A stretch of 64,000 nt of DNA from an uncultured delta proteobacterium (GTDB lineage Bacteria; Myxococcota_A; Polyangia; Polyangiales; Houyiibacteriaceae), in the NCBI GenBank assembly GCA_963746475.1, contig CAVVBB010000001.1, forward strand, positions 692,154-756,153. The letters run 5' to 3'. The notes under the pieces are model-generated. The model made no database searches and had not been told where the DNA came from. It saw only the letters and a program-made list of their open reading frames with translations. Numbering within the stretch: the first letter of the stretch is position 1; every line of letters begins with the position of its first letter. This document shows, one piece after another, positions 1,297 to 26,715 of this stretch. Both the position numbers and the translations under genes were made by a program.

Positions 1297-1306
1297 GTTG
1301 CCCTCC

Positions 1307-1951
1307 TCAAAGCGCTCTTTGCATGCGAGGGGCGAGCTCGCGTTCGGGGCGCCGCAACATGCAGCGAAGACGTAAGCCATTCGGTAGGTTCTCGTCCTTC
1401 AGGACGGAAAAGCCGCGCCTCTCGTAACCTGCCGCCAAGTCGTCTTCGAAGGTTTCGAGGTAGCAGGCGACACCCTCGGATTCGGCGCGTCCGATGATGC
1501 GTCTCAGCAAATCGTAGCCGATGCCACGTCCTTGCTTCTGTGGCGCGACCCCCACCGCCAGCACGTACCAGTGAGACCTCGGCGCGAGCTCCAAGCGCCG
1601 CTTTTCCATGCGCAGCCCGAGAGCAAAGGCACGCCAGGTCGCCCGCCAGCCAAAGCGCCGAGGAAACGCCAAGAGACCGGCGCGCAAGAGCGTCCATGGC
1701 GATGGGGCCTGATCGGGCCTGAACACGAGAATGCCAGCATCGCAGTCTTTGCTGACGTGAATCTCACCGCAGCGCAGAGCGAGCCGCGCCGCGAAGCGAC
1801 CAAAAAACCAAGCCAGGGCAGCGAGCTTGTCTGGGTGCCCCGACAGAATGTAGGAGTAGTCGGGGGCGCGACTGAAGGCCCTCGCCAGCGCGAGGCCGAG
1901 CTGGTCGCTACGCTGATCTGCCGTGCGCAGCAGGGTGATGTCGACGGTCAT
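1307..1951 (-). CDS. GNAT-family N-acetyltransferase
   Basis: The acetyl-CoA binding signature VAPQKQGRGIGYDLL is followed by YLETF...YERRGF. ATG at 1951 is preceded by GGAGA and lies 16 nt after the desaturase stop. Confidence 0.75.
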   Translation of the reverse strand: MTVDITLLRTADQRSDQLGLALARAFSRAPDYSYILSGHPDKLAALAWFFGRFAARLALRCGEIHVSKDCDAGILVFRPDQAPSPWTLLRAGLLAFPRRFGWRATWRAFALGLRMEKRRLELAPRSHWYVLAVGVAPQKQGRGIGYDLLRRIIGRAESEGVACYLETFEDDLAAGYERRGFSVLKDENLPNGLRLRCMLRRPERELAPRMQRAL

Positions 1952-1967
1952 GATGATTCTCCGGTCT

Positions 1968-2930
1968 CTATGCGGTCGTATTCTGCGATGACGCAGTTCG
2001 TGCCCCGCCGATCGACAGACCTCCGGAAGTCGGCAGGTCCATCGACGTCCACAGCCGAGGTCCCTGCCTCATCCAACGAGATGCGAACTCGGCAACAGTC
2101 GGCGCTTGCACCGATTGCGTGCTCTGCAAGGCCTTCAGTCGTCTGGGTGCTTCAAACCAGCGCGTCTGCGGCCAAATGTGGTGCACGCGATGCAGGTTCC
2201 TATGGAGCATCAGCTGAGAGAAGAGCGACGGGACCCGTACGTCATGGGTGACGCTCCCTTGGTCCCTGGATGGCGTCGCTTCACGGATTTCGACTCCATA
2301 GTGCTCGGCCTGGCTGAACAGAAAATCGATCCAGGCGAATCCACAGAATGGGATGAGGTACGCCATCAGGAACGACTGCGGTGCCGTCACGGCAAAGGCC
2401 ATCACCGCAAAGAGCGTGAGGCCCAAGCCCAAACGCGCAAGCATCAAGCTCCCTCTCTTGGCGCTCGGTACGTAGCGAGCCGCGAGCCGATTGATGGACA
2501 TCGCGACCCAGACCTGTGCTGCCGGCGCGATGGGCCAGATCCAACGCGTGCTCGGGCTACCCGCGTACAACAGGCCCTCCGGGTCGGCCTCGTCGCAAGT
2601 ATGGCGGTGGTGTTCGAAATGAAAATACCGATAGGCGACCAAGTTGAAACCTATCAAACCCGCCGCGATCGTTCCGAGCAGCTCATTGGCCATCTTCGAC
2701 GACACGAAGTTTCGATGCACGCTCTGGTGCGTCAACTCGAGCATCCCTACGAAGAAGAAGCTCTGCACGACCACCAAGGGCAGCACGAGCAGCGATCCAG
2801 GGTAGGCGCTAATCACCACCGTATTGAGCGCGGCCAGTGTGACGTAGACGTAGCTAGGCCAGCTGGCCCTGGCAAAACGAGGCACGCGGAGCGCGCCCTT
2901 CGGCTCGGCCGATGTCAGGTGTTTGCTCAT
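1968..2930 (-). CDS. membrane fatty-acid desaturase family protein
   Basis: Three His boxes are present (HQSVHRN, HFEHHRH, HRVHHIW) together with hydrophobic segments. ATG at 2930 overlaps the upstream stop as ATGA (2927-2930). The track ORF start at 3005 is rejected in favour of this coupled start. Confidence 0.8.
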   Translation of the reverse strand: MSKHLTSAEPKGALRVPRFARASWPSYVYVTLAALNTVVISAYPGSLLVLPLVVVQSFFFVGMLELTHQSVHRNFVSSKMANELLGTIAAGLIGFNLVAYRYFHFEHHRHTCDEADPEGLLYAGSPSTRWIWPIAPAAQVWVAMSINRLAARYVPSAKRGSLMLARLGLGLTLFAVMAFAVTAPQSFLMAYLIPFCGFAWIDFLFSQAEHYGVEIREATPSRDQGSVTHDVRVPSLFSQLMLHRNLHRVHHIWPQTRWFEAPRRLKALQSTQSVQAPTVAEFASRWMRQGPRLWTSMDLPTSGGLSIGGARTASSQNTTA

Positions 2931-5900
2931 GACCTTGCACTCAGCGAATGGGCGTTGTGCGTCGGGCGGGCAGCAAGCGCAGGATGACCGAGCGAATTGG
3001 CGCAAACCTGGGTTCGCTCGGCCGTCGTCCCTCGGACCGGGGCGCAGCTCGGCTCGGGCCGTACGGTGTCCTGCGGTTCGGACGCGTTAGCGAAGAGCTC
3101 GAATCGCTGCTCCGTCAACTTGTCGAAGACACTCATGATTGCACGCCTGTGATCACCGATGTCCACGCATGCGCAAACGCCATGGCCTCCCGAGTGCTGG
3201 TCCGGCGGATACCCGTTTCGCAGCAGACGGAACGGACGGTGCGTCCCGACCCACAGCTCGCGGAAGAAGGCCAAGAACGCATCCCGCGGGGTGCCATCGG
3301 CGAGTTCGAGACGCATGTAGTCTTCGGGACGGATGTCCTCGCTGGCCCGTGCCTCGGCGAACCCCGGCATCGCCAGACAGGCGAACACACGCTCCATGCG
3401 AGTTTCCTTCATCAGCGAGAGCGCGTTGAGAACCATCAGTCGGTGCGCCTGTTTGCTGTGCTCGCGGGCAATGCCGGCGGCCACGAGATACAGCTGTTTG
3501 CCTCGAGGGTCGAACGTCGAGCGTAGTCGACCTTGATCGGTAGCGTCGTCCCAAGAACGAATCTCTTCGGGAGACTTGTTCGTCGGTTGCATGATGTACC
3601 AACCGACCACTTCGCTATCGCCCCGGGCCGACGTCCTCTCGAGGAGCCAAAGCCAGGGTATCTCTCCGCTGTTTAGGATCTCGAGCTGATGCCTGATGAA
3701 ATCCGCGTCGTCCGTCGCGTCCTCGCCGAGCCAACCGTACTCGCTTTGATCGAGCCGGTGAATGACAGGGACGTCTTCAAGACGCGCCGGTCGCACCGCC
3801 CAGCTCCCTAGCTTGAAACCGGAGGTGCAGTCGCGCTCGCGAAGTAGAGCGCGCCGCAAAGCGTACAGTTCGTCGATGGTGCCCCCCGGTGATTGCGCAC
3901 GTACCTCATCGAGTGTTTCCTGCCTTTGGGGGCCCTCCGCGAAGGAACGGCTCAGCTCGCGGATGCTGAGTTTGTTGAAGAACTGAGCAATCGACAGCTC
4001 TTCCTGAGTCTGTTTTTCGTATTCCTGGCAGAACTCGATCGCCGTGAGCGACCCCATGCCCTGATGGGGCAGCGGCACCTGCACGTCGACGGCTTCGGAA
4101 TTCGGTAGATTGAGCAGTTGTCCAGCGATGTCACGCATCATGGTTTCACGTTGGCTCAAGGGTCCGCGACCGTCAGAGCGCTCCCTCCGTGCAGAGATCG
4201 ACTGCGGCTGCGGCTGCGGTGGAGCCGCGACCTTCGCCTGCAAGACATACAGCGCCTTGTCGACCAAGCGTCCATCCAGCCAGCGGCTCCTGCAGGCTTG
4301 ACGCCGCACCTTACCGCTGGTCGTTTTCAGGACGCTCCCCACCGGGGCGAGCACAATGGCGTGACAGGCTATTTGCTGGCTCTGCAACACCGCGCTTTGC
4401 AGCTTTTGGGCGAGCGCCCGCAACTCGGCGACCGAAGAGCGAGGGTTGCGCACTTCAGCCAGCAACACGAGTTTCTCTTCGACTTGTTCTGCGGACTCGA
4501 CCTCGACGCTGAAGCACGCCACCCCGCCTGGTTTCAGGCGCTCGTCTTCGAGCTGAACACAGTCTTCTACATCCTGCGGGTACAAGTTTCGCCCCGCCAG
4601 GATGAGCATGTCTTTGATGCGCCCGCAAATGTAGAGCTGTCCGTCACGGACGAAGCCGAGGTCCCCAGTACGCAAATAGCGATGCTGTTCATCGCCCACC
4701 AATCTTGCGGAGAACGATCGCACGTCGTCCTGATCGAGTTTCCAATACCCGGCGGCTTTACTAGGCGAATCGACCCAAATTTCGCCCACTTCGTCATCTT
4801 CACATTCCGTAGACGTCTCCGGATCGACGATCTTAAGCCGCACGTCTTGCGACCAAGTCCCGGAGCTGACGAGCTCGATGCTGTCTCGCACGGCTTCATC
4901 GCAGACTCGAACTTTGCGTTTCACCTCGAGCTCATGCTTGTCGATTTGGCAGACGGTACCGCCAGAAAAGCTGACGGCCACCGTGTGTTCCGCCAAGCCG
5001 TAGGCGGGCAAGTACGCTTCGGGCCTGAGCCCCGCGACCGCGAATGCCTCTAAAAAGCGGCGCGAAGTGGACGCCCGCACCGGCTCCGCCGCGCTCATCA
5101 CCACCTGTAGTGAGCTGAGATCCCACTGCGCTCTCTGCTCAGGGCTCGTTTTTCGCAGGGCAAGCTCGTAGGCGAAGTTCGGAGCCGCCGTGTGCGTCGC
5201 TCGGAGCTCGTGCATCAGCTCGAACCACAGCGCCGGACGCTTGATGAAATCGAGCGGCGAGAACAGTGTCAATTCCAGATTACCACCCAGTGCATTGAGG
5301 ATTCCGCCAATCAAGCCCATGTCATGGTATTGAGGAACCCACAGGACGCCTCTCGAGTGCTCGTTCATGCCCAGGCCTTCGCGGCTGAGCTCGATCTGAT
5401 GCAGAAGATTGCCATGGGTGATGACGACGCCTTTTGGAGTGGACGTCGAGCCAGATGTGTATTGAATCAGCGCGACGTCATTCGCGGCAGCCTCCGGACC
5501 ATACACCGGAGCGTAATCCCCGGCGCATACGTCGTCGGTCGTGACCCAGCGCAGATCGATCGCCCACTTGCTCCGCTTCAAGCTGAGAAAGTCTTGCACC
5601 ACGGAAAGCTTGCGAGTGCGCGCATAGGCGCGGTTGGTCACCACCAAGCGTGCGTCACAATCGACCGCGACCTTGTTGAAGGCCGCCATCCCCTTGTCCG
5701 CGTGCAGGGGATTGGGTGGATAGACAGGAACGGGGATCAGACCGGCGCGAATGCAACTTGCAAAGGCCAGCACGAAATCGAGCGACGGCGGATACACCAG
5801 GAGCACCCTGTCTCCCACACGGAGCTTACACCTGCTGCGTAGGAAGCCCGTGAGGGCATCGACCTTCAGTCGCAGCTCCTGCCAGCTGAGGGTTTGCTCA

Positions 5901-5998
5901 ATCTGCCCCTTGTCATTGGCAAAAGAGTAAACGGTCTTGGATGGGCTCTGCTCCGAGTAGTGCGAGAGCGCCGAAAAGAGAGTGTCGTGATGGGTCAT
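2927..5998 (-). CDS. fatty acyl-AMP ligase (FAAL) - acyl carrier domain - GNAT-like acyltransferase tridomain protein
   Basis: FAAL motifs are QYTSGSTSTPKGVVITHGNL, YGLAEHT, YLRTGDLGF and GRIKDMLILAGRNLYPQD. The carrier motif is GMGSLTAIEF, with the Ser codon near 4049-4051. The C-terminal ~240 aa look GNAT-like (VVGWYIMQP, LYLVAAGIAREHSKQAHRLMVLNAL). An alternative ATG lies at 6064. Confidence 0.85.
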   Translation of the reverse strand: MTHHDTLFSALSHYSEQSPSKTVYSFANDKGQIEQTLSWQELRLKVDALTGFLRSRCKLRVGDRVLLVYPPSLDFVLAFASCIRAGLIPVPVYPPNPLHADKGMAAFNKVAVDCDARLVVTNRAYARTRKLSVVQDFLSLKRSKWAIDLRWVTTDDVCAGDYAPVYGPEAAANDVALIQYTSGSTSTPKGVVITHGNLLHQIELSREGLGMNEHSRGVLWVPQYHDMGLIGGILNALGGNLELTLFSPLDFIKRPALWFELMHELRATHTAAPNFAYELALRKTSPEQRAQWDLSSLQVVMSAAEPVRASTSRRFLEAFAVAGLRPEAYLPAYGLAEHTVAVSFSGGTVCQIDKHELEVKRKVRVCDEAVRDSIELVSSGTWSQDVRLKIVDPETSTECEDDEVGEIWVDSPSKAAGYWKLDQDDVRSFSARLVGDEQHRYLRTGDLGFVRDGQLYICGRIKDMLILAGRNLYPQDVEDCVQLEDERLKPGGVACFSVEVESAEQVEEKLVLLAEVRNPRSSVAELRALAQKLQSAVLQSQQIACHAIVLAPVGSVLKTTSGKVRRQACRSRWLDGRLVDKALYVLQAKVAAPPQPQPQSISARRERSDGRGPLSQRETMMRDIAGQLLNLPNSEAVDVQVPLPHQGMGSLTAIEFCQEYEKQTQEELSIAQFFNKLSIRELSRSFAEGPQRQETLDEVRAQSPGGTIDELYALRRALLRERDCTSGFKLGSWAVRPARLEDVPVIHRLDQSEYGWLGEDATDDADFIRHQLEILNSGEIPWLWLLERTSARGDSEVVGWYIMQPTNKSPEEIRSWDDATDQGRLRSTFDPRGKQLYLVAAGIAREHSKQAHRLMVLNALSLMKETRMERVFACLAMPGFAEARASEDIRPEDYMRLELADGTPRDAFLAFFRELWVGTHRPFRLLRNGYPPDQHSGGHGVCACVDIGDHRRAIMSVFDKLTEQRFELFANASEPQDTVRPEPSCAPVRGTTAERTQVCANSLGHPALAARPTHNAHSLSARS

Positions 5999-6110
5999 CT
6001 GCCTAAGCCTTTCATTGTCCTTGATACGCAGGGCGGAACGCTTAGGTCGGTCACCCGCGTCCATACTCGAATGAATAGGACGACATCTGAGCGCGAGTCA
6101 GATGGACAGA

Positions 6111-6152
6111 GCGCTTAAGGCGCTTAGGAAAACCCGCGTCGACGCTTAAGCG
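6111..6152. promoter_or_regulatory. clustered GCTTA(A/G)G motifs in the intergenic region upstream of the FAAL gene
   Basis: GCGCTTAAG (6111-6119) is followed directly by GCGCTTAGG (6120-6128). A perfect 10-bp palindrome CGCTTAAGCG lies at 6143-6152. This is a candidate operator, and its function is not demonstrated. Confidence 0.25.
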
Positions 6153-6189
6153 ACGCAGAGCTTGCCGGCGATGACGGGGCGAAGCGGGC

Positions 6190-7227
6190 CTACTTGGCGG
6201 AGGCGACCTGGAGCATGCGCGCGCCGCGCGCGTCCTCGGGCAGCAGGTCCTCGGCGCTGCACGTCGCCTGGTATCCGGCGACCGTGTCGTGCGCGATGTC
6301 AGCGAGGAAGCTCGCCACTTCTGCCTCCTTCGCCGAAGCGAGCTTTCCAGCGTAGCGCGCGGGCACGGGCAAGCCCTGGGAGCTCACGCCGTAGAGGGTC
6401 TCGTAGAACACGCATGCCGCGAGATAGCCGCCCTGCGGGGTAAGATGCAGGAAGTCGCTCTTCTGAAGTTGAATGGGCAGCTCCGAACGTTCGGCAGCGG
6501 CGCGCTCGGCAGCACGAAAGGCCGGGCCCACGGGCGCATTCAGTACCGGCGTGCCTGCCTTGTCGGCGGCCCGCCGGATGCACTCGAAGCGCGCGTTGAT
6601 TCTCGGCTGCGGCGCGACGTTGTTCGCGAGCGCCGGACCGACGTAGTTGACCCAGGTCGTCTTCGGCAGGGTTTCGCGAACTTGCCCGATGAAGGCGTAC
6701 TTGTTTGCCGTGTGTCGACGGGGCGAGTCGAAGCGCGAGGGCATCAGCTTGCCGAACCAGTGAAACAGGCTTGGATGCTCGAAGGAGTCCTGTCCGAGCA
6801 GATGCATGAAGCCCACCCCCACGACGTAGGTCCAGGGAACCTCGCCGTACTGCTTTAGCTTTTCGCGAGCCTGGCCGGGACCGTCGACCCAATAGCCGAG
6901 GTCGTGCGGCCCCTCGGCGAAGCCGAGCGAGCGACCTTCGGGAATCGTCGTGCGCCCGTCTGCGATGGCGAGCCGATGGATGTCGGCTACCAAAGCAGGG
7001 ATGTCGAGCGCGGGGTCCTGATTCGCCTGGTCCCCGGGCGCCTTGAGCAAACTGTGACCAAACCAGAGCACGTGGACGGCACCCTTCTGAAGAGGCCTTG
7101 GCTCAGGCCCCTCGGCTTCCGGCTCCTCTCGGTTCTGCCAGATCGAGTCGAGATCCAGGTCTTGGTTCGAGCCACAGGCCAGGGCGCCCGAAAGAAGCAT
7201 CAGCAAACCGCCCAAGCGCACTCGCAC
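6190..7227 (-). CDS. SGNH/GDSL-like hydrolase-fold lipoprotein (putative)
   Basis: GTG at 7227 lies 4 nt after the PKS stop. The signal is MRVRLGGLLMLLSGALAC with a lipobox-like ALAC. Block I-like VLWFGHSLL and block V-like DFLHLTPQGGYLAA are present. Confidence 0.5.
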   Translation of the reverse strand: MRVRLGGLLMLLSGALACGSNQDLDLDSIWQNREEPEAEGPEPRPLQKGAVHVLWFGHSLLKAPGDQANQDPALDIPALVADIHRLAIADGRTTIPEGRSLGFAEGPHDLGYWVDGPGQAREKLKQYGEVPWTYVVGVGFMHLLGQDSFEHPSLFHWFGKLMPSRFDSPRRHTANKYAFIGQVRETLPKTTWVNYVGPALANNVAPQPRINARFECIRRAADKAGTPVLNAPVGPAFRAAERAAAERSELPIQLQKSDFLHLTPQGGYLAACVFYETLYGVSSQGLPVPARYAGKLASAKEAEVASFLADIAHDTVAGYQATCSAEDLLPEDARGARMLQVASAK

Positions 7228-7231
7228 CGTG

Positions 7232-10200: not shown

Positions 10201-13200
10201 CATAGGTTTGCTCGAAACAGAGCTCGCCGCGCAGGGCGAGCGCACAAGTTCGTGGCCTCGAGAGGAGCTCCGTGAGGAGCGCTGCGGGCTCGGGCGGCGA
10301 AGCGACCCGCGACCTCGACAGCAAACCACGACGGGGCGCTTTGACCGGGACGGGCATGTCGATGCTGCGTATCTGCAGTCCCTCATACTCTTTTGGAAGG
10401 ACGCGCAGCGGGCCGAGGAGGGTTGCCTTGTTGGGGCAGGCGAGCTTCTCATCGCCCGCGGCCTGCATGCCGGAGCTGACCACATCCATGGCGACGCCCT
10501 CGAGCATCCCCGCCTTCGACAGCTCGGCAACGAGGTAGAGGACGCTGTAAAAGCCCCTCTCCAAGTGAAACTGGAACAAGTTGCCGTTTTGAAGGTCGTC
10601 GGGCTCGTCCGAGTAAAGCCAGGCGTGCACGACGCGATCAGGCCGCAGCTCGGCCTTGGCCAGAGCTGCCACGAGCCGCTCGTAGCCATCGGCGCCGCGC
10701 TCCGGATCGAGCATGAAGCTGTGCACAGTGACTGGCGCAAACGCGTTGCCCGGTCGAACTGTGACGACTCGCTTGCCCCGAGCCTTCAGGCGGTCGACCA
10801 AGGCATCCGTGCAACCGAGCGAGTCCGCGAACACGAGCCAGCATTCGGACTGCTCGTCGGCAAGCTCGGGCCGCTCTCTGAGCTTCCAGGCGTCCTCGTA
10901 GAATCGCTCCGCGGGATTTTCGATCCTGTGCAGTCCCTCGGAGCTGCCATGGCCCGTGACCTGGCCCGGCTCGATGAAGTAGCGCTGACGCTGAAACGCG
11001 TAGGTCGGGAGCGGAAGCCGACGCCGCCTTCCGGGGGCTCGGAACTGTGACCAGTCGATCTCGAAGCCCGCGCACCAGAGCTGACCCGCCACCCGTAGCA
11101 GGTAGGCCCTGTCGTCGATCTTCTCCTTCGGGTGCCGCAAAGAGCCAGTCACGAGCGCAGCGTTGGCAGCCTTGCAACTCTGCTTGGCGAGCGAGCTGAG
11201 TGTCGTCCCGGGGCCGACCTCGAGCAGCAGTCTGCCCGGCTCCTCGAGCAGCCTATCCATGCACTGCGAAAAGCACACGGTGCTCCGAAGGTGCTGAACC
11301 CAGTACTCCGGGTCCGTCGCCTCCTCCGCCGTGAGCCAGTCACCGCTGCGGTTCGAAAGCACGGGGATCTCTGGTGGGCGCAGAGTCAGCCCTGATAGCT
11401 GGGCGCGGAACTCCTCGAGGATCCCGTCGAGCATGTTGGAATGTGCCGCCACGTCGATGCGGATGCGGCTGAAGTCCACATCGTCGGCCTGCAGTCGCTC
11501 GACGAGGGCGGCGATCGCAGCCTCGGGACCCGACACCGTGAAGAGCTCCGGCCCGTTCTTGCAGGCCAGACTCAGGGAATCGGCCAGGTACGGTCGAAGC
11601 TGCTCTTCCGGGAGCGCCACGCTGAGCATCCCGCCCCGTTCTGTCTTCTCGAACAAGCGGCCGCGAAGAGACACGAGCCCCAAGCAGTCCTCGTAGCTCA
11701 TGACACCGGCCACGCAGGCCGCCGTGTTCTCGCCCATGCTGTGCCCGAGTAAGGCCCTGGGCTCGACCCCCCGTCGACGCCAGAGCGCGGCGAGCGCGTA
11801 CTCGAGGATGAAGATGGCCGGGAGCTGCAGCGAGGGTCGAAGGAGCTCGGTAGCGGCAGCCTCTTTGCGTGACTCGTCCGCGAACAAGAGGGGCGCGAGC
11901 TCGAGCCCCTGCTCCTCGCGGAGCCAGCTCAGGCCCCGGTCGACGTCCTTGCGGAACTCCGCGTCCGCTTCGTAGAGGTCACGCGCCATGCCGACATACT
12001 GCGCGCCGCCCCCGGGAAACAAGAAGGCCACGGACGGGCGCTGAGCGCTCGCTTTGCCCTCGGTCCAGCGCAAAGAGTCCCGGCTCGACAGAAGCTCGAC
12101 GGCATCCGCCTGGTTCGAGACCACGGCTACCGCACGGTGCCCAAAAGCCCTGCGTCCGACGTCCAAGGTGTAGGCAACGTCGGCGACTTCGAGCGCGGGC
12201 TCCTCGGTCAGGTGCGCGGCCAGTCGGCTCGCGTTGCCTGCCAGGGCTTCTGCGTTTCGTCCGGAAAGCAGCAGCGCGTGAAAGGCCTCCTCGCTCGGCG
12301 CCGAAGTCGGGACCTCGGGAGCCTCCTCCAGCACGACGTGCGCGTTCGTACCCCCGACGCCGAGAGAGTTCACGCTCGCGCGCAGCGGCTCTTCGGAAGT
12401 CCAGTCACGCAGTCGGTCGTTGATGAAGAACGGCGACTGATCGATGTCGAGCGCCGGGTTCGGCGCCTCGAGGTGCAGAGTGGGTGGCAGCTGCCGGTGC
12501 TGAAGAGCCTTGCAAACCTTGATGAAGCTCGCCACGCCCGCCGCAGTGTCGAGGTGTCCGATGTTCGTCTTCACCGAACCAATGCCGCAGTAACCTAGCC
12601 GATCCGTCGAAGTCGAGAAGGCCTGTGTCAGAGCCGCGAGCTCGATGGGATCGCCCGTGGCTGTGCCGGTGCCGTGGGCTTCTACGTAGCTGATGGCGTC
12701 CGCATCGATGCCCGCCACCTCGAGCGCCTCGGCCACCGCCGCCGCCTGCCCGTCGACACTGGGAGCCAAGTAGCCCACCTTGCCGGAGCCGTCGTTGTTC
12801 ACCGCAGAGCCGCGGAGCACGGCAATGACGTGATCGCCGTCGTCCAGGGCATCCTGAAGGCGGCGGAGCACGACCATGCCCGCACCACTGCCGAACACGG
12901 TGCCCTGGGCGTGCTGGTCGAAGGCGCGACAGCGACCGTCCGGGGACAGAATCTCGCCCTCGGCGTAGAGATAGCCCTGTCGGTGCGGCAGCTCGAGAGT
13001 CACGCCGCCTGCCAAGGCCATGTCGCACTCGAGCGCCAGCAAGCTCGAGGCCGCCTCGTGAATCGCGACGAGCGACGTCGAGCAAGCCGTCTGGATGTTG
13101 AGGCTCGGCCCCTTCAGGTCGAGACAGTACGAAATCCGGGTCGCGAGAAAGTCTTTGTCGTTGCCGGTGTGGCGAAGCAGAAAGTGTCCGACGGAATCGA

Positions 13201-13630
13201 CGAGTTCCGGATTGCTCAGAAGGTTCTGGATGAAATAGGAGTTCATCCCGCAACCGGCGTACACCCCGATCGAGCCATCGAAAGAATCGGGGGGATGCCC
13301 TGCGCTCTCGAGCGCCTCCCAGGCGCACTCGAGCAAGGTCCTGTGCTGCGGGTCCATGATCGCGGCGTCCTGCGGACCGAAGCCGAAGAACTCTGCGTCA
13401 AAATAGTCCATCTTGTCGATGGGGGCGCCGCGCTTCACGTAGTTGGGGCGCTCGAGATCGGCCCTTCGAACGCCGGCGGCGAGCAGCTCCGCGTCGGTGT
13501 AGGTTCGGATCGACTCGACACCGTCCCGCAGATTCTCCCAGTACTGCTTGGGCGTATCGGCCCCGGGGAAGCGGCAGGCCATGCCCACCACCGCAATCAA
13601 GTCACCAGTCTCTTCGTGCATGCTCGACAT
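7232..13630 (-). CDS. type I polyketide synthase, KS-AT-KR-DH-carrier-TE
   Basis: KS motifs are DTACSTSLVAIH, EAHGTGT and KTNIGHL. The AT has GHSMGE. The KR has TGGLGGIG and YVAANAY. The DH has HRRADGRALVP and HPALLD. The carrier has FFDLGGHSL. The TE has GFSGG and GDH. ATG at 13630 lies 6 nt after the NRPS stop. Confidence 0.95.
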   Translation of the reverse strand: MSSMHEETGDLIAVVGMACRFPGADTPKQYWENLRDGVESIRTYTDAELLAAGVRRADLERPNYVKRGAPIDKMDYFDAEFFGFGPQDAAIMDPQHRTLLECAWEALESAGHPPDSFDGSIGVYAGCGMNSYFIQNLLSNPELVDSVGHFLLRHTGNDKDFLATRISYCLDLKGPSLNIQTACSTSLVAIHEAASSLLALECDMALAGGVTLELPHRQGYLYAEGEILSPDGRCRAFDQHAQGTVFGSGAGMVVLRRLQDALDDGDHVIAVLRGSAVNNDGSGKVGYLAPSVDGQAAAVAEALEVAGIDADAISYVEAHGTGTATGDPIELAALTQAFSTSTDRLGYCGIGSVKTNIGHLDTAAGVASFIKVCKALQHRQLPPTLHLEAPNPALDIDQSPFFINDRLRDWTSEEPLRASVNSLGVGGTNAHVVLEEAPEVPTSAPSEEAFHALLLSGRNAEALAGNASRLAAHLTEEPALEVADVAYTLDVGRRAFGHRAVAVVSNQADAVELLSSRDSLRWTEGKASAQRPSVAFLFPGGGAQYVGMARDLYEADAEFRKDVDRGLSWLREEQGLELAPLLFADESRKEAAATELLRPSLQLPAIFILEYALAALWRRRGVEPRALLGHSMGENTAACVAGVMSYEDCLGLVSLRGRLFEKTERGGMLSVALPEEQLRPYLADSLSLACKNGPELFTVSGPEAAIAALVERLQADDVDFSRIRIDVAAHSNMLDGILEEFRAQLSGLTLRPPEIPVLSNRSGDWLTAEEATDPEYWVQHLRSTVCFSQCMDRLLEEPGRLLLEVGPGTTLSSLAKQSCKAANAALVTGSLRHPKEKIDDRAYLLRVAGQLWCAGFEIDWSQFRAPGRRRRLPLPTYAFQRQRYFIEPGQVTGHGSSEGLHRIENPAERFYEDAWKLRERPELADEQSECWLVFADSLGCTDALVDRLKARGKRVVTVRPGNAFAPVTVHSFMLDPERGADGYERLVAALAKAELRPDRVVHAWLYSDEPDDLQNGNLFQFHLERGFYSVLYLVAELSKAGMLEGVAMDVVSSGMQAAGDEKLACPNKATLLGPLRVLPKEYEGLQIRSIDMPVPVKAPRRGLLSRSRVASPPEPAALLTELLSRPRTCALALRGELCFEQTYGSAPLIDGDGASIKEGGVYLITGGLGGIGFALARRMASRGCRLALVGRTSLPKRSQRETWLRLHGPNDSVSLMIRRVQELEELGAEVLLTPADVSDLEAMRTVLQTIEGAFGRVDGVVHAAGLLRDGLAETKTVDEIGAVLAPKVHGTRVLDTLFADRRLDFFVTCSSTSTAIGPAGQVDYVAANAYLNAHAKLRRAEGRPFTALNWGVWAEVGMAASAAAEMRGAKRSKVFPGPTTKFPLFTACEETEDGQTRFLGTLSPRRHWLLDGHRRADGRALVPGTGFVQLVTAAMEELVPDTPIRIQNLSFLSPLDLDDDEERMFRVVLQQDGSGAYSVEVQSTSELDGASRDWELHAEGEVKLLRRSRETKYLPLRSIEDRCRVSRLGDGVRALPSDQERHIRFGPRWAVLRRVAYGEGEALAELSLSDEFAGEVSDFSMHPALLDLATGCAMRLIEGYEGSELWVPMTYRSIKVSRSLPPRVLSWVRNAGDNEVCGETATFDISITTTDGELVASIEGFSLRRLTPGMQLGRAVSATPAATKGSRASVPSALLTPAQRAFQNMLSLGITPEEGAQAFETVISSRKVSATPIYTSIDLPSLARQTEASVRSSEASLALERPELKSPYLAPRDRWEEAIAQMWSSLLGVDGVGVQDSFFDLGGHSLIAVRLFNLVRREFGVELAISVLFEAPTVESLAALLREELGAADERSGKPKAEVRKKAKSTVVPIRTSGSLPPIFCAAGMGGNPMNLRHLAYYLGDEQPFYGLQHRGTDGREAPHESVEEMAAEYLRDMREVQPRGPYYIGGFSGGGTAAYELAQQLTQQGEEVGLLFMLDSLCPVMPERNRRERLRMHTLRLREGGASYALGKVVDGAGDVIDSAKDAIVRPLAKAFPYQFRNDNMRVAWLQAESRYAPKPYKGGPAHLFRVSHEEREMGTRLRFDDALGWGELIPDLAVTVVLGDHETMCSEPYARHLATELIRALDVAQREAAE

Positions 13631-13636
13631 GATTCC

Positions 13637-16600
13637 TCAGGCTGACTTCTTCTTGCGGCGACCCAGCGCGTGACGGCGGCGCGCGCCTCGACTCACCGCC
13701 TTCTCCATCACCTCGCCGGCGTCGTCGCCGGACAAGGCCTCGGCCAGGGAGCCGATGGTCGGAAAGCGATAGAGGTCGGTCAGCTTCACCGGCTGCTCGA
13801 GCTGCTCCCGCAGAGCCCGATGCGCCTGCACCATCAGGAGGGAGTGACCGCCGAGGTCGAAAAAGTTTTCGTCGCGCCCAATGCCCGTGAGCTGCAGGGT
13901 CCGCTCCCAGATCGCGGCAATCGTCCGCTCGAGCTCGTTTGACGGTGCCACCGTGGCGGCTGCCGCTCGGCGGTCCTTGCGCAGGCCTTCCGGCGACGGC
14001 AGCGCCTTGCGGTCGATCTTTCCGTTCGGAGTGAGTGGGAAGGCCGGTAAACTCGCGAACACCGAAGGTAGCATGAACTCGGGGAGCTCTTTGCGAAGCG
14101 CGGCGCGAAGCGCGTCCTCGTCGATGCTGCTGTCTTCGGGGACCAGGTACGCGACCAGACGCGGATCTCCGCCCGGGTCGGGCTGGGCGACGACGACGCA
14201 CTCTCGAACCGTCGGGTGCTGGGACAGCTTGGCCTCGATTTCACCGAGCTCGATGCGATAGCCGCGAATCTTGACCTGAAAGTCCATCCGCCCGAGGAAA
14301 TCCACGCTGCCGTCCGACGCAAAGCGGGCGAGGTCTCCGGTTCGGTAGAAGCGCGAACGTTCTTCACCGGCGCTCGGCAAAGAGACGAAGCGCTCGGCGG
14401 TGAGCTCGGGCCGCTGGTGGTACCCGCGGACGACCCCCTCTCCGCCGATCAGCAGCTCACCGGGCAGGCCGGGAGGAACAGGTTCGAGGAAGCGGTCCAC
14501 GATGCAGAGCTGCGTGTTCGAAATGGGCCTGCCCACGGAGATGCTCTGTGGCTTTCCCGAGACCCGCTGAGTCGAGGACCAAATCGTGGTCTCGGTCGGC
14601 CCGTACATGTTCGTCACGGTGCCGCCTACGATGTCGTCGAGGGCATGGGCCAAGGCGACGGGAAAGGCTTCGCCGCCGATCATGATGTGATCGATTCGTC
14701 CGAGCGCCGCACGCATGTCGTCGTGCAGCGTCATCATCTTGGCCATCGACGGCGTGCACTGAAAGTGGCTGACGCCGTGCTTCGCGATGAGAGCCGCGAG
14801 ACCGAAGTCCTCCTGCTGCGGCTGCTCAGAACCGTGCGTTCGATTCGCCTCTTGCATGACCTGGGCCAGGCCCGGAAGCCCGCGCCGCACGTCCTCGACG
14901 GACATGCCGAAGTCGACCAGACAGGCAATCTCGTCGACGCCGGCGGCGCGTACCCGGTCCACCATCTGCACGCAGTTCTGCGGAGTCCCAAAGAGTCCGC
15001 TGGTCTCGTAGTAGCGCTCGAAGGCGTGATCCAAGAGCGCGTCCATTTCCTCTTCGCTCAGGTGGTCGAGGCTGATGTCGTCGCGCTCGTCCGTCCCTTT
15101 AGGGCGCTTGAAGGCTGGGAAGGACCAGGCGAACCCCTTGATGAGCGAAATGGAGCTCGAAAGGTAGTCCTTCATCGGCTGCCGCACCCGCTCGCGCACC
15201 TCCTCGTCGCTCTCGCCGACGCAGGAGTGGAGCATCAACGTGACCTTGCCCGTGGCCGGATCGAAGCCCGCCTTCCGCCGAGCTTCCCTGTACGCACGAA
15301 TCTTTTCGGCCATCTCCTCGAGGCTCTGTCCGAGCAGATGGGTCAGCAGATTGGCACCCGCCCTACCCGCCATCTCGTAGGTCTCGACGTTGCCCGCACT
15401 GGTCACCCAGACGGGGAGCTCCGGCTGAACTGGACGCGGCAGCACGCTGGTCTCGACCATGTCGCCGAAGGGGTTCTCGAAGGAGACCGATTCACCACGC
15501 CAGAGCTTGCGCACGGTCTCGATGGCCTCAAACATCTGGCGCTTGGCATCCTTGAAGCCTTGCGGACGGATGACGAAGTCGTTGGGCTGCCAGCCCGAGG
15601 CGAAAGCGAGACCGACACGCCCTCGCGAGAGGTTGTCGACCACGGACCACTCTTCGGCCACGCGAATGGGCGGGTGCAGCGGAAGCACGCAGCTGCCGGC
15701 GCGGATCTCCACCTGCTTGGTCACGGCCGCGAGGGCGGCCCCTGTGACGGAGGGGTTCGGAAACGGCCCGCCAAAGGCGTGGAAGTGCCGCTCCGGCGTC
15801 GAGACGAACTTGAAGCCGCGCTCGTCGGCGAACTTGGCGCTCTCGAGCATGAGGTCGTACTTGCCCTGCGCCGAGGAGTCGTCGTTGCCCCAGAGGAAGA
15901 TACCGAAGTCCATCGGCTTTGCAGGGCCGGCCGCCCGCGTGAAGCCCTGCGTGTCGTCCTGTTTCCGGTCGACATAGAGGACGACCTTGAAACCGCGGCA
16001 CAGCGTCCAGTGCAGCTCCAGCACGGAAATGTCGAAGGACAGACTCGTCACCGCGAGCCAGGTACCGGGTGGGTCGTGCGCAATGCACTCGTCCATCCCC
16101 GCAAAGAAGTTCACGACGTTGCGGTGTTCGACCATCACGCCCTTGGGTTTCCCCGTGGAGCCCGAGGTGTAGATGACGTACGCGAGATTGCGGGGGGCGG
16201 GTCCATCGCTGGGCGGCTCGCTCGGAAACTCTGCGATACGGGGCCACTCGGAATCCACGGCGACGGTGCGCGCTGCGGACTCGGGGATTTGGGGCGCGAG
16301 GGCCTTCTGAGTGAGAACGATGGGGACCTGGCTGTCCTCGATCATGAAAGCGATGCGATCGCGCGGATAGCTGGGGTCGAGCGGCACATACGCGCCGCCG
16401 GCCTTCATCACGCCCAGCACGGAGACGATCATGTCGAGCGAGCGCTCGACGAAGATGCCGACCATGACGTCGGGGCCGACGCCCTCGTTCTTCAAATAGT
16501 GTGCGAGCTGGTTCGCGCGCTGGCTGAGCTCCAGATAAGTGTAGCTCTGTCCTTCGCAAACCAGCGCATCGGCCTCGGGCGACTTGGCGACCTGGGCGTC

Positions 16601-18373
16601 GAACTGCTGGCAGATCGTGCTCTGCGCGGGCAGCTCCTTGCCGGTGGCGTTCCACTCGCGCGCGATGCGAATTCGCTCTTCCTCGGTCAGCAGCGAGACC
16701 CGCCGAAAGGCTTCCCCGGGCGCACGCGCGATCGCTTCGAACCAGCTTGCGAGCTGTGCCAACATCCTGTCTGCATCCGGAGCGGCTAGTGCCCGCTCGT
16801 CGTACTCGACGAGCAGCTCGCTCCCATTTGCGTCGGTCACGAAGGACAATAGCGTGCCGGCTGGAGCTGCGAAGTCCTCACGCTCGTCCACGCGAGCCAG
16901 CAGCACGGGCGAAAGCCCCTGCTCGAGGAGCGCGCTGGACGAGCGCAAAGCGCGGTAGCGCTGGACCATGTCCTTCAGAAAAGGACCGCGCTTCCGGTAG
17001 CGGCTCAAACTCGTCAAGAGAGACGCGCTGGCGTCCCGGGCACTTTGCTCCGCATCCTCGCCGAGGGCGATCCGCCAGGGAACCTCCCTGCTGAACAGTT
17101 CTTGGGCCCCGTCGGCCTCGGACAGAAGTTCCGCGTCCACGAGGCTGAGGTCGAACTGCGCTTGCGGGCTGATGCGCGCCAGGTACAGCGCGACCGCAGC
17201 CAGAACGGCGTCGGCCCGGCGCGTGGCGTCACCGCCGGCAAGGGTGTCCATGTTCGGCAACGACAGCGTTCGGCGGCCGCGCCTGGGCGAGCCCTCGGCG
17301 ATGCGTTCCGGCCGTAAGTAAGGAAGCTCCACGCCGTCGAGGCGCGTCAGCTCTCGCAGCCAGCGCGGCTCGGCGCGGGCGATTCGCTCGGCGCGGGCGG
17401 CGTCGAAACTCTGGTCGACGCCGGTCAGCACTTCGCCCACGGCTACCCCTAGGTAGAGCAGCGCTTCCTGCGGACTGAGTGACCTCCCCGAGAGCGAGCG
17501 AAGTCCGCTCAGCAGCAGCGCGCCAGAGCGCATCGCGACCCGAATACCATTGTCATCGAACGCCAGGCAGGTGCCGGCCGATGCGCCCTCGGCGGCGTCG
17601 ACGAGCTCGGCCCGAGCGACGGTGACGGCACGACCCCGATGGGCAAGCTTGGCCGCCCCGAACGGGTTGTCGTAGTGCCCAAAGTCGAGCGCGCGAACGA
17701 GCCGTTCGCCCTGCTCGGCGGAGTGCTTGAAGTCGAGCGCGCACAAACTGTCGGGACGTTGGTAGCGAGCAAAGTAGCTGCGCCGACTCAGGTCCTGCGG
17801 GCTCCGCGACTGCCGGCCCGAATCGAGCTGCTCGGTGAGCTCGGCGAAGGCCTCGATGGCGGCGGCGAAGTTCTTCGTGTTAAGGGTGACGGAGGTCTCT
17901 GCGGGATCGAGTGCGAAGTCATGCCGCAGCAAGACGTCGCCCTCGTCGATACCGCCAGCCATGTCGTGGAAACTGATTCCGTATTGGCTGAGACCGTTGA
18001 TCAGGGCCCAGACCGGAGTGTACATCCCGGCGTAGTCGGGCAGAGGGCCATCGTGGAAGTTGATGGCCTGCCGACTTGCGCTCGCGAGCATTCTCTCGGG
18101 CACGATCGAGAGATTGGCGATACTGAAGAGATACTCGGGCGCCAGCTCGGGGACTCCCTCCGCCGCCTCATCCCCTGGCGCGAGCACACTCAGTTGCTCG
18201 GCTCTCGCCCAAGCCACGACGGCCTCGGCCGCGCTGACCACCGCGAGCACGTGGTGCCCCCGCTCCCGCCAAATCTGAGCGCACTGCACCAGCAGCGACT
18301 CCTGACCGACGAAAACGGCGCCAAGCGATGGACCGACGGGAGCGCCACCGGTTGAGTTGGGCCTTTCCACCAT
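13637..18373 (-). CDS. NRPS: formyltransferase-like domain - partial condensation domain - Gly-type A domain interrupted by a luciferase-like monooxygenase - PCP
   Basis: The Fmt-like motif is INFHDGPLPDYAG...GIDEGD. A-domain motifs are LAYVIYTSGSTGKPKG, SFDISVLE, NMYGPTETT, YRTGDLA, QVKIRGYRIELGEIE and NGKIDRK. The LLM insert begins MDFGIFLWGNDD. The PCP motif is FFDLGGHSL. Confidence 0.95.
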   Translation of the reverse strand: MVERPNSTGGAPVGPSLGAVFVGQESLLVQCAQIWRERGHHVLAVVSAAEAVVAWARAEQLSVLAPGDEAAEGVPELAPEYLFSIANLSIVPERMLASASRQAINFHDGPLPDYAGMYTPVWALINGLSQYGISFHDMAGGIDEGDVLLRHDFALDPAETSVTLNTKNFAAAIEAFAELTEQLDSGRQSRSPQDLSRRSYFARYQRPDSLCALDFKHSAEQGERLVRALDFGHYDNPFGAAKLAHRGRAVTVARAELVDAAEGASAGTCLAFDDNGIRVAMRSGALLLSGLRSLSGRSLSPQEALLYLGVAVGEVLTGVDQSFDAARAERIARAEPRWLRELTRLDGVELPYLRPERIAEGSPRRGRRTLSLPNMDTLAGGDATRRADAVLAAVALYLARISPQAQFDLSLVDAELLSEADGAQELFSREVPWRIALGEDAEQSARDASASLLTSLSRYRKRGPFLKDMVQRYRALRSSSALLEQGLSPVLLARVDEREDFAAPAGTLLSFVTDANGSELLVEYDERALAAPDADRMLAQLASWFEAIARAPGEAFRRVSLLTEEERIRIAREWNATGKELPAQSTICQQFDAQVAKSPEADALVCEGQSYTYLELSQRANQLAHYLKNEGVGPDVMVGIFVERSLDMIVSVLGVMKAGGAYVPLDPSYPRDRIAFMIEDSQVPIVLTQKALAPQIPESAARTVAVDSEWPRIAEFPSEPPSDGPAPRNLAYVIYTSGSTGKPKGVMVEHRNVVNFFAGMDECIAHDPPGTWLAVTSLSFDISVLELHWTLCRGFKVVLYVDRKQDDTQGFTRAAGPAKPMDFGIFLWGNDDSSAQGKYDLMLESAKFADERGFKFVSTPERHFHAFGGPFPNPSVTGAALAAVTKQVEIRAGSCVLPLHPPIRVAEEWSVVDNLSRGRVGLAFASGWQPNDFVIRPQGFKDAKRQMFEAIETVRKLWRGESVSFENPFGDMVETSVLPRPVQPELPVWVTSAGNVETYEMAGRAGANLLTHLLGQSLEEMAEKIRAYREARRKAGFDPATGKVTLMLHSCVGESDEEVRERVRQPMKDYLSSSISLIKGFAWSFPAFKRPKGTDERDDISLDHLSEEEMDALLDHAFERYYETSGLFGTPQNCVQMVDRVRAAGVDEIACLVDFGMSVEDVRRGLPGLAQVMQEANRTHGSEQPQQEDFGLAALIAKHGVSHFQCTPSMAKMMTLHDDMRAALGRIDHIMIGGEAFPVALAHALDDIVGGTVTNMYGPTETTIWSSTQRVSGKPQSISVGRPISNTQLCIVDRFLEPVPPGLPGELLIGGEGVVRGYHQRPELTAERFVSLPSAGEERSRFYRTGDLARFASDGSVDFLGRMDFQVKIRGYRIELGEIEAKLSQHPTVRECVVVAQPDPGGDPRLVAYLVPEDSSIDEDALRAALRKELPEFMLPSVFASLPAFPLTPNGKIDRKALPSPEGLRKDRRAAAATVAPSNELERTIAAIWERTLQLTGIGRDENFFDLGGHSLLMVQAHRALREQLEQPVKLTDLYRFPTIGSLAEALSGDDAGEVMEKAVSRGARRRHALGRRKKKSA
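14819..15916 (-). other. luciferase-like monooxygenase (MOx) domain inserted between A-domain motifs A4 and A5
   Basis: This covers aa ~820-1185 of the NRPS. It sits after SFDISVLE (A4) and before NMYGPTE (A5). The sequence is MDFGIFLWGNDDSSAQGKYDLMLESAKFADERGFKFVSTPERHFHAFGG... Confidence 0.8.
17504..18325 (-). other. methionyl-tRNA formyltransferase-like N+C domains at the NRPS N-terminus
   Basis: This covers aa ~17-290. N105-x-H107 lies in INFHDGPLP and D143 lies in GIDEGD, 36 residues after the His, which is the same spacing as E. coli Fmt N108/H110/D146. Confidence 0.75.
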
Positions 18374-18410
18374 AGATCCCCCGAAGAAGAGGAGAAATTT
18401 CTCTCTTACA

Positions 18411-19091
18411 TTTCAGGCTGCCAACCGCAAGCAACACAGGCCGGCGAATTCCCGTGTTCGGTGACCCAAACCGCCAGGCCCCCACTCGTAGGTCAGCGTC
18501 CGGAGCTGTGCGCCTAGAAGCCACGACGCAGACGAACACGAAGCCGGTCGCCGCGTCCGCCAAGGCGGCCCCTAGACAGGTATGCGCGCCAACACCGTAG
18601 GGGTTGAACGCGCCCTGCTCCGGCTGGACCGCCCCTTCGCCCAGAAACCGGCCGGGATCGAAGCGCTCCGGTTCCTCGAAGTACTCCCGCATGAGACTCT
18701 GAGCTCCGGTCGACACGAAGAGCTGGTCGCCCTCCTCGATTTGGGAGCCGGCATACACGAAGGGCGTCGTCGCTTGGCGTACGAACCCAGAAAGGGCCGG
18801 GTAGCGGCGACTCGACTCCAGCTTCACGGCCGTCGCCAAGGGCAACTGAGCCATCCATTTTCGCCCGAGCGGCTCGGACGCGCTGGCGGCCTCTGCTTCT
18901 GCACGCCGCTCCGCGACCAGCCCTGGACGTCGATAGAGCGCGGCCAGCGCAAAGCTGAGCGCCGCCGCCACCGTATCCAGCCCCGCAAAGTACCGCGTGA
19001 TGGCCAGCAGCGGTACGTCTCGCTCGGTCAGCAACTCGTCGCGCACGCAGCGCCCAAGCGCCGCGAACAGGCCTTCATCCGAATCGAGGTC
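18411..19091 (-). pseudogene. cytochrome P450 remnant (C-terminal ~225 aa only)
   Basis: It retains the I-helix AGLDTVAA, the ExxR motif ESSRRYP, the PERF-like EEPERFDPGRF and the heme loop FNPYGVGAHTCLG. The N-terminal ~225 aa of a normal P450 are absent, and only ~390 nt remain before the next gene. The frame runs on without a stop into the NRPS start. Confidence 0.6.
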
Positions 19092-19485
19092 GCTGGCTAC
19101 GCCAATCGACCTCGACTTCGACGTTTCCGTTGATGAACTTGAACTGCCAGCAGGTCCGAAACATGTCGAAGTTGATGAGGTGACGGTTGGTGTTGAGTGA
19201 GCCCGAGGCCCAGCCGACAGTTCCGTTGTAGCCAAGCCCCGCCAGGGTCCGTCCATCGGCACGCTCCAGTTTCCACGTCGTGTTCAACGAGCCCTGGTTG
19301 GGAGTTTGGCCAAGCACGGCTTCGACGCACAGACGGTAGAGGCTGGCCAACACCTATGGGTGACAGGGCAGCTCTCGAAATAGCGGCTCATCGGCTTTCT
19401 GCGGCGTCGCACGACCCCAATCCTCATCGCATAGCGCCAGGGGAGAACCGCGGGGCCTAGGTGTAGCGCCATTGGGGACCTGGGC

Positions 19486-26031: not shown

Positions 26032-26238
26032 TGGTACCTTCTCCTCGGCGCGACGCATTCTGCGACACTAGACCCCAGCGCGATCGGAGAGGCCTATCGG
26101 ACAGGCATCCGCCCCAGGCCAACTATCCTGGCTCTGGGTTCGTCTTTTTGGGCGAACGAGGAGCGCCTAACGGGGGAGACCGAGACCCTGCGGGTCACCC
26201 GACGGACGTCACCGTCGTCCCCGGAGCCGTCGGTCGTG

Positions 26239-26643: not shown

Positions 26644-26715
<72 letters not shown>

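Follow-up and report, generated by a model that had tools for sequence, protein, structure and literature searches.

The 64,000-nt window analyzed here, from an uncultured delta proteobacterium, contains a stretch of ~17 kb (1307-18373; all coordinates are window positions) in which six minus-strand genes encode a nonribosomal peptide synthetase (NRPS), a polyketide synthase (PKS), a lipoprotein of predicted SGNH fold, a fatty acyl-AMP ligase (FAAL) fused to an acyl carrier protein (ACP) and a GNAT-like domain, a desaturase-family protein, and a small GNAT. On balance, we consider it probable that these genes form two independent three-gene modules lying side by side: module A, an N-formyl-alpha-hydroxyglycyl NRPS-PKS line accompanied by an exported esterase-fold lipoprotein, and module B, an unrelated and mobile fatty-acid trio. 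A preliminary description of the same DNA had given six open reading frames (ORFs) with these positions and this strand, which the ORF list confirms, and had read them as a single cluster, a view that does not survive comparison with relatives.

Evidence for two modules comes from the closest relative, locus L005, with which window positions 17230-6179 are collinear (L005 1-11052) at 88% nucleotide identity by blastn; collinearity resumes at window 1297-268 (L005 11101-12125). Boundary alignment places the left edge of the intervening 4.9-kb block, which corresponds to module B, at ~6178, and shows the whole block replaced by 48 nt in the relative. The block is also lower in G+C (59.6-62.5%) than the NRPS, PKS, and SGNH genes (64.7-67.8%). 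At two further loci, L011 and L012, the module B trio is found together, in another order and orientation and without NRPS, PKS, or SGNH genes; the L011 proteins share 63% (FAAL-ACP-GNAT-like), 66% (GNAT), and 55% (desaturase) identity with those of the window. Because L005 lacks the block and module B stands by itself in L011 and L012, the two modules appear to be separately inherited. Wider sampling gave the same picture. A metagenome scan with an alignment of the NRPS formyltransferase (F) and truncated condensation (deltaC) domains recovered at least 521 relatives, of which 80 loci were examined; module B occurs in none of these 80 loci and in none of seven SGNH-linked loci (overall, 0 of ~90), and no homologue of the GNAT-like, desaturase, or GNAT proteins was detected in the 80 metagenomic loci, even at an E-value of 0.01. 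In the sample examined, the NRPS-PKS pair and the FAAL trio are not co-inherited, a pattern that the preliminary description had itself named as telling against a single cluster. Genome-mining tools would merge modules A and B into one cluster here, which shows why a close relative should be consulted before any product is put forward.

Base-by-base reading upholds the junction spacings and overlaps reported previously. The NRPS stop (TGA, 13639-13637) lies 6 nt from the PKS start (ATG, 13630-13628), with a GAGGA at 13638-13634 overlapping the stop; the PKS stop (TGA, 7234-7232) lies 4 nt from the lipoprotein start (GTG, 7227-7225); the FAAL stop shares an ATGA (2930-2927) with the desaturase start; and the desaturase stop (TAG, 1970-1968) is separated by 16 nt from the GNAT start (ATG, 1951), with a GGAGA at 1962-1958. 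Missing from that account was the 125-nt gap between the lipoprotein stop and the FAAL start, which is the boundary of the two units. Three copies of CGCTTAAG/CTTAAGCG, with a palindromic CTTAAG core, occupy this spacer at 6112-6119, 6121-6128, and 6143-6152, just inside the indel block; as repeats upstream of the FAAL gene, they could represent a candidate operator for module B. A promoter and terminator scan, uninformative for this organism, returned no promoter-like sites and fewer terminator-like sites than shuffled sequences, and Rfam gave no match to a riboswitch or leader, either in front of the NRPS or elsewhere in the cluster. The genes and their domains are not chance products, because profile matches are strong on ORFs of 1578 and 2132 residues. 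Nearly all of the domain calls made in the preliminary description are upheld by Pfam, NCBIfam, family profiles, and Foldseek (Table 1).

Table 1. Positions of genes, domains, and other features in the window
Feature	Position	Strand	Extent or basis
NRPS	13637-18373	-	1578 aa ORF
Fmt-type formyltransferase domain (F)	17465-18373	-	residues ~1-303; Formyl_trans_N/C at residues 68-303
Truncated condensation domain (deltaC)	16640-17461	-	residues ~305-578; C-terminal lobe only
A domain split by luciferase-like FMN monooxygenase	14018-16603	-	AMP-binding, Bac_luciferase, TIGR04020
MOx insert	14858-15913	-	residues 821-1172; TIGR04020 at 487 bits
PCP	13733-13924	-	residues 1484-1547; PP-binding match; LGGHSL serine
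PKS	7232-13630	-	2132 aa ORF
KS	12467-13597	-	Pfam
AT	11132-12025	-	Pfam
psiKR+KR	9566-10909	-	Pfam
DH	8627-9472	-	Pfam
ACP of PKS	8108-8299	-	Pfam
TE	7235-7999	-	Pfam
SGNH-fold lipoprotein (predicted)	6190-7227	-	345 aa ORF
Spacer between module A and module B	6065-6189	.	125 nt
Indel block (module B)	1298-6178	-	4.9 kb; blastn collinearity, boundary alignment
FAAL-ACP-GNAT-like	2927-6064	-	1045 aa ORF
FAAL	4232-5986	-	AMP-binding
ACP of FAAL protein	3947-4135	-	PP-binding
C-terminal GNAT-like domain	~3083-3817	-	~250 residues; family profile, Foldseek
Desaturase/hydroxylase-family membrane di-iron protein	1968-2930	-	320 aa ORF; FA_desaturase 89.5 bits vs cut-off 29.7
Small GNAT acetyltransferase-family protein	1307-1951	-	214 aa ORF; Acetyltransf_1
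Cytochrome P450 remnant	18558-19082, in ORF 18168-19262	-	Pfam p450 profile positions 257-428 only
Bestrophin	19486-20547		not conserved with cluster
Na+/H+ exchanger	20673-22601		not conserved with cluster
MacB/FtsX permease	26801-28366		not conserved with cluster

Pfam, NCBIfam, and a family profile together resolve the NRPS as F, deltaC, a glycine-type adenylation (A) domain with a monooxygenase (MOx) insert, and a peptidyl carrier protein (PCP). The N105-x-H107-D108 motif and D143 of the F domain are invariant in 16 family members and kept in orthologues, and among solved structures it is closest to sugar N-formyltransferases, Fmt, and ArnA (E 1e-17 to 1e-14), the LgrA F domain following at only E 0.4. 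Residues 300-590 have no Pfam match even at E up to 10. A family profile then identified the region, matching the condensation (C) domains of Txo2, Txo1, TomB, and EntF (E 1e-15 to 1e-7) over the part that follows residue ~190 of those domains; the HHxxxDG motif is not present in this region, and the "half C domain" of the preliminary description proves to be the C-terminal lobe of a condensation domain. The two parts of the A domain (residues 591-805 and 1183-1452) flank a luciferase-like monooxygenase inserted between A4 and A5, with FDxS at residue 781, the insert itself at 821-1172, and NxYGPTE at 1255. The best solved relative of this insert is PuwE (6ket), at E 6e-113 over the whole domain. 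From its motifs the A domain has the specificity code DILQMGMIWK, which we take to be glycine-type, supporting the earlier call; the code is identical or near-identical in three orthologues of 41-49% identity, and glycine-type codes dominate across the NRPS family. The LGGHSL motif of the PCP is likewise kept in orthologues. Several orthologues (L003:3744-9764, L007:6864-12827, L006, and L001:1607-3490) have an A domain with two inserts: besides the A4-A5 monooxygenase, a second of ~390 residues lies between A8 and A9 and shows the N-methyltransferase-like motifs VLEIGCGTG, NSVAQYFP, and NNEMSxFRYD. A domains doubly interrupted by two different activities are rare.

The PKS consists of ketosynthase (KS), acyltransferase (AT), psiKR/ketoreductase (KR), dehydratase (DH), ACP, and thioesterase (TE) domains, an unusual order in that DH comes after KR. 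Its catalytic motifs are all kept in four orthologues of 43-88% identity, namely the KS Cys and His, GHSMGE, the KR Tyr, the DH His and Asp, the ACP Ser, and the TE GxSxG. An LxD motif marks the KR as B-type and is conserved in the orthologues, and both KR and DH resemble domains of modular synthases (PksJ, MlnE, and CurK/F/J). The AT departs from the usual pattern at two places, each kept in all four orthologues: (V/I)AAHS stands in place of HAFH or YASH, and Leu occupies the conserved Gln position of the QPALF motif.

The third protein of module A has a signal peptide with a lipobox Cys (MRVRLGGLLMLLSGALAC) and is predicted to be exported. It belongs to no Pfam or NCBIfam family, the best match being DUF4886 at E 0.088. 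Its AF2 model (pLDDT 89) has as top Foldseek matches GDSL/SGNH hydrolases, carbohydrate esterases, and periplasmic O-acetyltransferase domains (E 1e-4, probability 1.0), and on this model the protein is assigned an SGNH/GDSL fold in which block I supplies a Ser and block V an Asp-x-x-His. The predicted catalytic residues are Ser59 (GHSL) and Asp258-x-x-His261; the Ser, Asp, and His columns, like the lipobox Cys, are conserved across 22 homologues. A GTDB genome scan gave SGNH-family matches in three metagenome-assembled genomes, and searching by way of SGNH homologues led to seven distinct loci with NRPS, PKS, and SGNH genes in four gene orders. A 44%-identical SGNH homologue at L009:3863-12596 lies among lipid genes without an NRPS or PKS; its neighbors encode a TetR regulator, an SCP2 protein, an Fe-alcohol dehydrogenase, a ferredoxin-reductase-type protein, a 463-aa desaturase, and a lipase-like hydrolase. 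These neighbors hint that the SGNH family may act on lipids.

Taken together with precedent, the domains of module A suggest a short pathway. The A domain would load glycine on the PCP; the Fmt-type domain, standing in place of the N-terminal lobe of the C domain, would N-formylate the glycyl thioester from N10-formyl-tetrahydrofolate; and the MOx insert would hydroxylate the alpha carbon to give N-formyl-alpha-hydroxyglycyl-S-PCP. Loading modules of the F-A(Gly)-PCP type that make formyl-glycyl-S-PCP are known (PMC5764310), monooxygenases embedded in the glycine A domains of SolF, MtaG, and MelG hydroxylate the alpha carbon of N-acyl-glycine (PMC10204066), and the PuwE oxygenase has been proposed to hydroxylate alpha to a thioester (PMC4219810). 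The KS would then accept this starter and the AT supply one malonyl-type unit, which the B-type KR and the DH would convert to a 4-formamido-4-hydroxybut-2-enoyl thioester, to be released by the TE as an acid or lactone, or onto an acceptor. In the least certain step, the SGNH lipoprotein would hydrolyze or transfer an ester of the unit outside the cytoplasm; to judge from gene neighborhoods in the family, a surface glycan or lipid is a likely acceptor. Domain homology supports the small N-formylated, alpha-oxidized glycine-polyketide unit that had been suggested for these genes.

Module B would run separately, with the FAAL loading a fatty acid on its own ACP, the GNAT-like domain probably off-loading or altering the acyl chain, and the desaturase-family enzyme and small GNAT tailoring the product. 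The top NCBIfam models for the ligase are of FAAL or FadD32 types (340-378 bits, all below curated cut-offs), and an ACP follows. The C-terminal domain of the protein is more elusive: it has no Pfam match at E up to 10, a single-sequence PDB search gave only noise, and a word-indexed protein search missed it at its limit of sensitivity. An exhaustive HMMER search found a family of 138 representatives at 50% identity (relatives P0056-P0193) that has no Pfam model, occurring at the C terminus of FAAL-ACP, FAAL-ACP-amine oxidase, and multidomain PKS proteins, and also free-standing (~240 aa) or fused to radical SAM domains (~560-600 aa). In the window protein and 13 multidomain relatives the domain is C-terminal, after the ACP. 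The family has conserved motifs (QPT, MPG(F/Y), and GYPPDxxSGGHG) and its own invariant Trp, Asp, and Ser, and its profile matches the GNAT-like domains of GphF and CurA (E 0.003 and 0.007). Foldseek with the AF2 model (pLDDT 88.6) finds the GNAT-like decarboxylases of SxtA, CurA, and GphF at E ~1e-11, some five orders better than ordinary GNATs, with target TM scores of 0.81-0.84 for CurA and GphF. In weak HMM alignments, the catalytic Thr/Ser and His positions of CurA and GphF fall on Phe or Tyr. The domain may be regarded as a candidate chain-release or modifying domain, for which SbzI, reported to be a carrier-protein-dependent GNAT acyltransferase, offers a precedent (PMC11685415). The desaturase-family protein has the His boxes HQSVH, HFEHHRH, and HRVHH, and weak NCBIfam matches to hydroxylases and ketolases of the same superfamily.

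The NRPS of module A belongs to a broad family. Among the 80 metagenomic loci, F-deltaC-A(MOx)-PCP is found in nearly all that have enough DNA; 25-26 have a KS-AT-KR-DH-ACP-TE PKS beside the NRPS, either before or after it, eight lack a PKS but have a TE fused to the NRPS, ~13 stop at the PCP, and four are without the MOx insert. Recurrent neighbors across the family are GT4/GT2 glycosyltransferases, Bac_transf proteins, Wzx-type flippases, DegT aminotransferases, phosphopantetheinyl transferases (PPTases), FemAB-like and hexapeptide acyltransferases, ATP-grasp enzymes, and LtaS-like sulfatase-family proteins. Of the 47 loci whose flanking coding sequence amounts to at least 6 kb, 25 have one or more glycan-type neighbors (glycosyltransferase, Wzx, Bac_transf, or DegT), a raw count given with no background rate. 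The single-protein F-deltaC-A(MOx)-PCP-TE members without a PKS (L035, L045, L046, L055, L056, L058, L069, and L074) would release or transfer N-formyl-alpha-hydroxyglycine itself, and several adjoin FemAB-like, ATP-grasp, and hexapeptide transferase genes. At L013:10001-21576 the NRPS and PKS are split into ~10 short ORFs, which are probably frameshift errors of a long-read assembly and not gene fission; these genes adjoin GT2, Alg14/GT28, a sulfatase-family protein, and a Pfam-recognizable GDSL lipase.

These neighborhoods invite a broader proposal, which we put forward tentatively and with considerable doubt: F-deltaC-A(Gly,MOx)-PCP could be a widespread route to N-formyl-alpha-hydroxyglycyl groups that are extended by the PKS here to a C4 enoyl unit and attached to surface glycans or envelope lipids through the SGNH protein, in the manner of the Dlt system. 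The frequent polysaccharide neighborhood suggests a function outside classical antibiotic-type secondary metabolism, and provides a testable link between assembly-line enzymes and cell-surface decoration.

Several points weigh against the two-module account and the chemistry proposed for it. Modules A and B run in the same direction with only 125 nt between them, and may be co-transcribed here. Every chemical step is deduced from sequence, and an N-formyl carbinolamide might collapse instead of being extended. Because of the (V/I)AAHS motif and the missing Gln of the AT, the extender unit may not be plain malonyl-CoA, and because DH follows KR, the PKS may be used iteratively. The window's own neighborhood contains no glycan genes. 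The link of the SGNH protein to the pathway is limited to a subclade, itself found by searching with the SGNH protein, because none of the 80 metagenomic NRPS loci carries an SGNH gene, even at E 0.01; the idea of NRPS, PKS, and SGNH as an obligatory trio was dropped after this NRPS-first scan, the earlier result being in part one of ascertainment bias. SGNH homologues also occur without an NRPS or PKS in the sequence examined at L009 and L010, the latter a 6-kb contig.

Among competing explanations, the one that survives best supposes that the N-formyl-alpha-hydroxyglycyl group, as a carbinolamide, loses formamide as in MtaG and MelG, leaving a glyoxylyl starter that the PKS would convert to 4-oxobut-2-enoate, a reactive aldehyde acid. 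The resemblance of the NRPS to an MtaG/MelG-type C-A(MOx)-PCP module with the N-terminal lobe of its C domain replaced fits such a route, as does the existence of F-deltaC-A(MOx)-PCP-TE variants without a PKS. We nevertheless judge it unlikely: a formyl group spent only to be discarded would be wasteful, the methyltransferase domain in the A domain of many orthologues would be pointless if the nitrogen-bearing part were lost, and alpha-hydroxyglycine is retained in solanimycin B, which keeps its alpha-hydroxyl (PMC10204066).

We give little credence to a single six-gene pathway in which the FAAL-ACP-GNAT-like protein adds a desaturated acyl chain to the glycine-polyketide, yielding a lipo-amino-acid-like metabolite. 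Gene direction and the mere 125 nt between the modules speak for such a pathway, and the SGNH homologue at L009 does have lipid genes for neighbors, namely those for a desaturase, a reductase, an SCP2 protein, and a lipase-like hydrolase. Against this stand the absence of the 4.9-kb block from a relative of 88% identity, the lower G+C of the block, the occurrence of module B by itself in L011 and L012, and its absence from all ~90 NRPS loci. A joining enzyme is also wanting: the C domain is truncated, and the six-gene stretch encodes no other candidate such as an intact C domain. On these grounds, the preliminary suggestion that the glycine-polyketide is joined to a FAAL-activated acyl chain is not supported.

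Of similarly slim prospect is an iterative PKS that would make a longer conjugated polyene acid, instead of the C4 unit, from the formyl-glycine starter. DH after KR occurs in iterative enediyne and PUFA-type synthases, and the KS-AT-KR-DH order without an enoylreductase, like the unusual AT motif, could be accommodated by iteration. The kinship of KR and DH lies nearest to modular domains, though, and the protein has a single ACP and an integrated TE, with no chain-length factor or partner genes conserved beside it.

Least probable of the rivals is N-hydroxylation, by which the MOx and F domains would build a hadacidin-like N-formyl-N-hydroxy glycine, a retro-hydroxamate, for the PKS to turn into a metal-binding antimetabolite, a carboxylate resembling fosmidomycin. 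Pairing of an oxygenase with an Fmt-like formyltransferase makes N-formyl-N-hydroxy groups in siderophores, and the F domain here resembles free-standing Fmt and sugar formyltransferases more closely than it does its LgrA counterpart. N-hydroxylases are, however, normally of another flavoenzyme class, and the N-methyltransferase-like insert of the orthologues would compete for the same nitrogen. The closest relatives of the insert point to carbon as well: PuwE is proposed to hydroxylate the carbon beside the thioester (PMC4219810), and SolF, MtaG, and MelG hydroxylate the carbon of glycyl residues (PMC10204066). Oxazole formation was rejected: no OzmP/CongE/PtxD-type cyclodehydratase was found among the scanned window ORFs or the recurrent family neighbors, and KR and DH are present and would remove the keto group needed for cyclization.

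Beyond the two modules, the remainder of the window comprises housekeeping genes. In line with the preliminary description, which had listed no MbtH or PPTase gene, the six frames of the window gave no MbtH or Sfp-type PPTase signature; its statement that the window has no transporter must be corrected, given a Na+/H+ exchanger, a bestrophin, and a MacB/FtsX permease. Between the bestrophin gene and the NRPS start, that description had also passed over a cytochrome P450 remnant that retains an I-helix AGxDT, an ExxR, and the heme loop FNPYGVGAHTCLG. By tblastn, only residues ~222-399 are found and there is no room for an N-terminal half; the ORF extends 205 nt into the NRPS gene, and the remnant is probably a pseudogene left by rearrangement. 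As a truncated C-terminal half only, it was rejected as a tailoring gene. Elsewhere, window 30874-32655 (minus strand) encodes a 593-aa wax ester synthase/diacylglycerol acyltransferase fused to a C-terminal SCP2 sterol-carrier domain, and window 22984-26058 (minus strand) encodes a 1024-aa protein with a weak PQQ-repeat match and a C-terminal PAP_fibrillin domain, of a plastoglobule/lipid-body protein family unusual in bacteria. A single tRNA gene (26644-26715, minus strand; Rfam 68.6 bits) lies ~8 kb upstream of the NRPS and does not adjoin the indel block.

If our reading is correct, the window contains a representative of a large synthetase family that has gone unstudied and numbers at least 521 environmental relatives; this family newly combines formylation of carrier-bound glycine, alpha-hydroxylation by a monooxygenase set within the A domain, and half a C domain retained as a scaffold. 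Independently of this, the C-terminal GNAT-like domain defines a domain family found at the ends of FAAL-ACP and PKS proteins. No description of the architecture emerged from full-text literature searches. Already known singly are F-A-PCP loading, MOx-interrupted glycine A domains, SGNH esterases, and GNAT-like PKS domains. Not described in the searchable literature are the grafting of a formyltransferase onto a decapitated C domain ahead of a glycine A domain interrupted by MOx (sometimes by both MOx and a methyltransferase), the use of that NRPS as the starter for a single KR-DH-TE PKS module, and the C-terminal placement of the GNAT-like domain.

Comparison with known systems places these features in context. 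In the Dlt system, DltA and DltC make an aminoacyl thioester and the acyl group reaches a cell-envelope polymer with the extracytoplasmic SGNH-like DltD. The likeness drawn here is one of functional analogy, resting only on gene neighborhoods and the SGNH fold; unlike the Dlt system, a PKS module and TE intervene, and no MBOAT (DltB-like) partner is seen in the window. For module B, the C-terminal domain of the FAAL protein shares its fold with the GNAT-like decarboxylases of CurA, GphF, and SxtA. Those domains precede the ACP in loading modules, whereas the domain here follows the ACP at the C terminus and, on a weak alignment, seemingly has hydrophobic residues in place of the catalytic Thr/Ser and His of CurA and GphF.

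The NRPS itself has several partial counterparts. PtxE (phthoxazolin), OzmO (oxazolomycin), the conglobatin and rhizopodin loading modules, and LgrA (gramicidin) share its N-terminal F domain, glycine-type A domain, and PCP, and F-A(Gly)-PCP loading modules of oxazole and enamide polyketides also hand a formyl-glycyl starter to a PKS (PMC5764310). Unlike modules of the PtxE/OzmO/LgrA type, the window protein has a 270-residue remnant of a C domain between F and A and a monooxygenase insert within A. It further differs in having no OzmP/CongE-type cyclodehydratase nearby, in an F domain barely similar to that of LgrA (E 0.4), and in being followed by only one PKS module. PuwE (puwainaphycin; PDB 6ket) likewise embeds a luciferase-like oxygenase in an assembly line, and is proposed to place a 2-hydroxyl beside the thioester (PMC4219810), but its oxygenase sits between PKS and NRPS modules instead of within an A domain, and its substrate is a beta-amino fatty acyl chain, not glycine. 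MtaG (myxothiazol), MelG (melithiazol), and SolF (solanimycin) match the arrangement of a glycine A domain with a flavin monooxygenase between A4 and A5. Their modules stand within or at the end of the line, and an intact C domain passes them a long acyl or peptidyl chain, whereas here the N-terminal lobe of the C domain has been lost together with HHxxxDG. Because this lobe is lost and the formyltransferase supplies the N-acyl group, the module would start the line, a clear case of domain replacement, if our reading holds, the N-acylating role having passed from a condensation domain to a formyltransferase.

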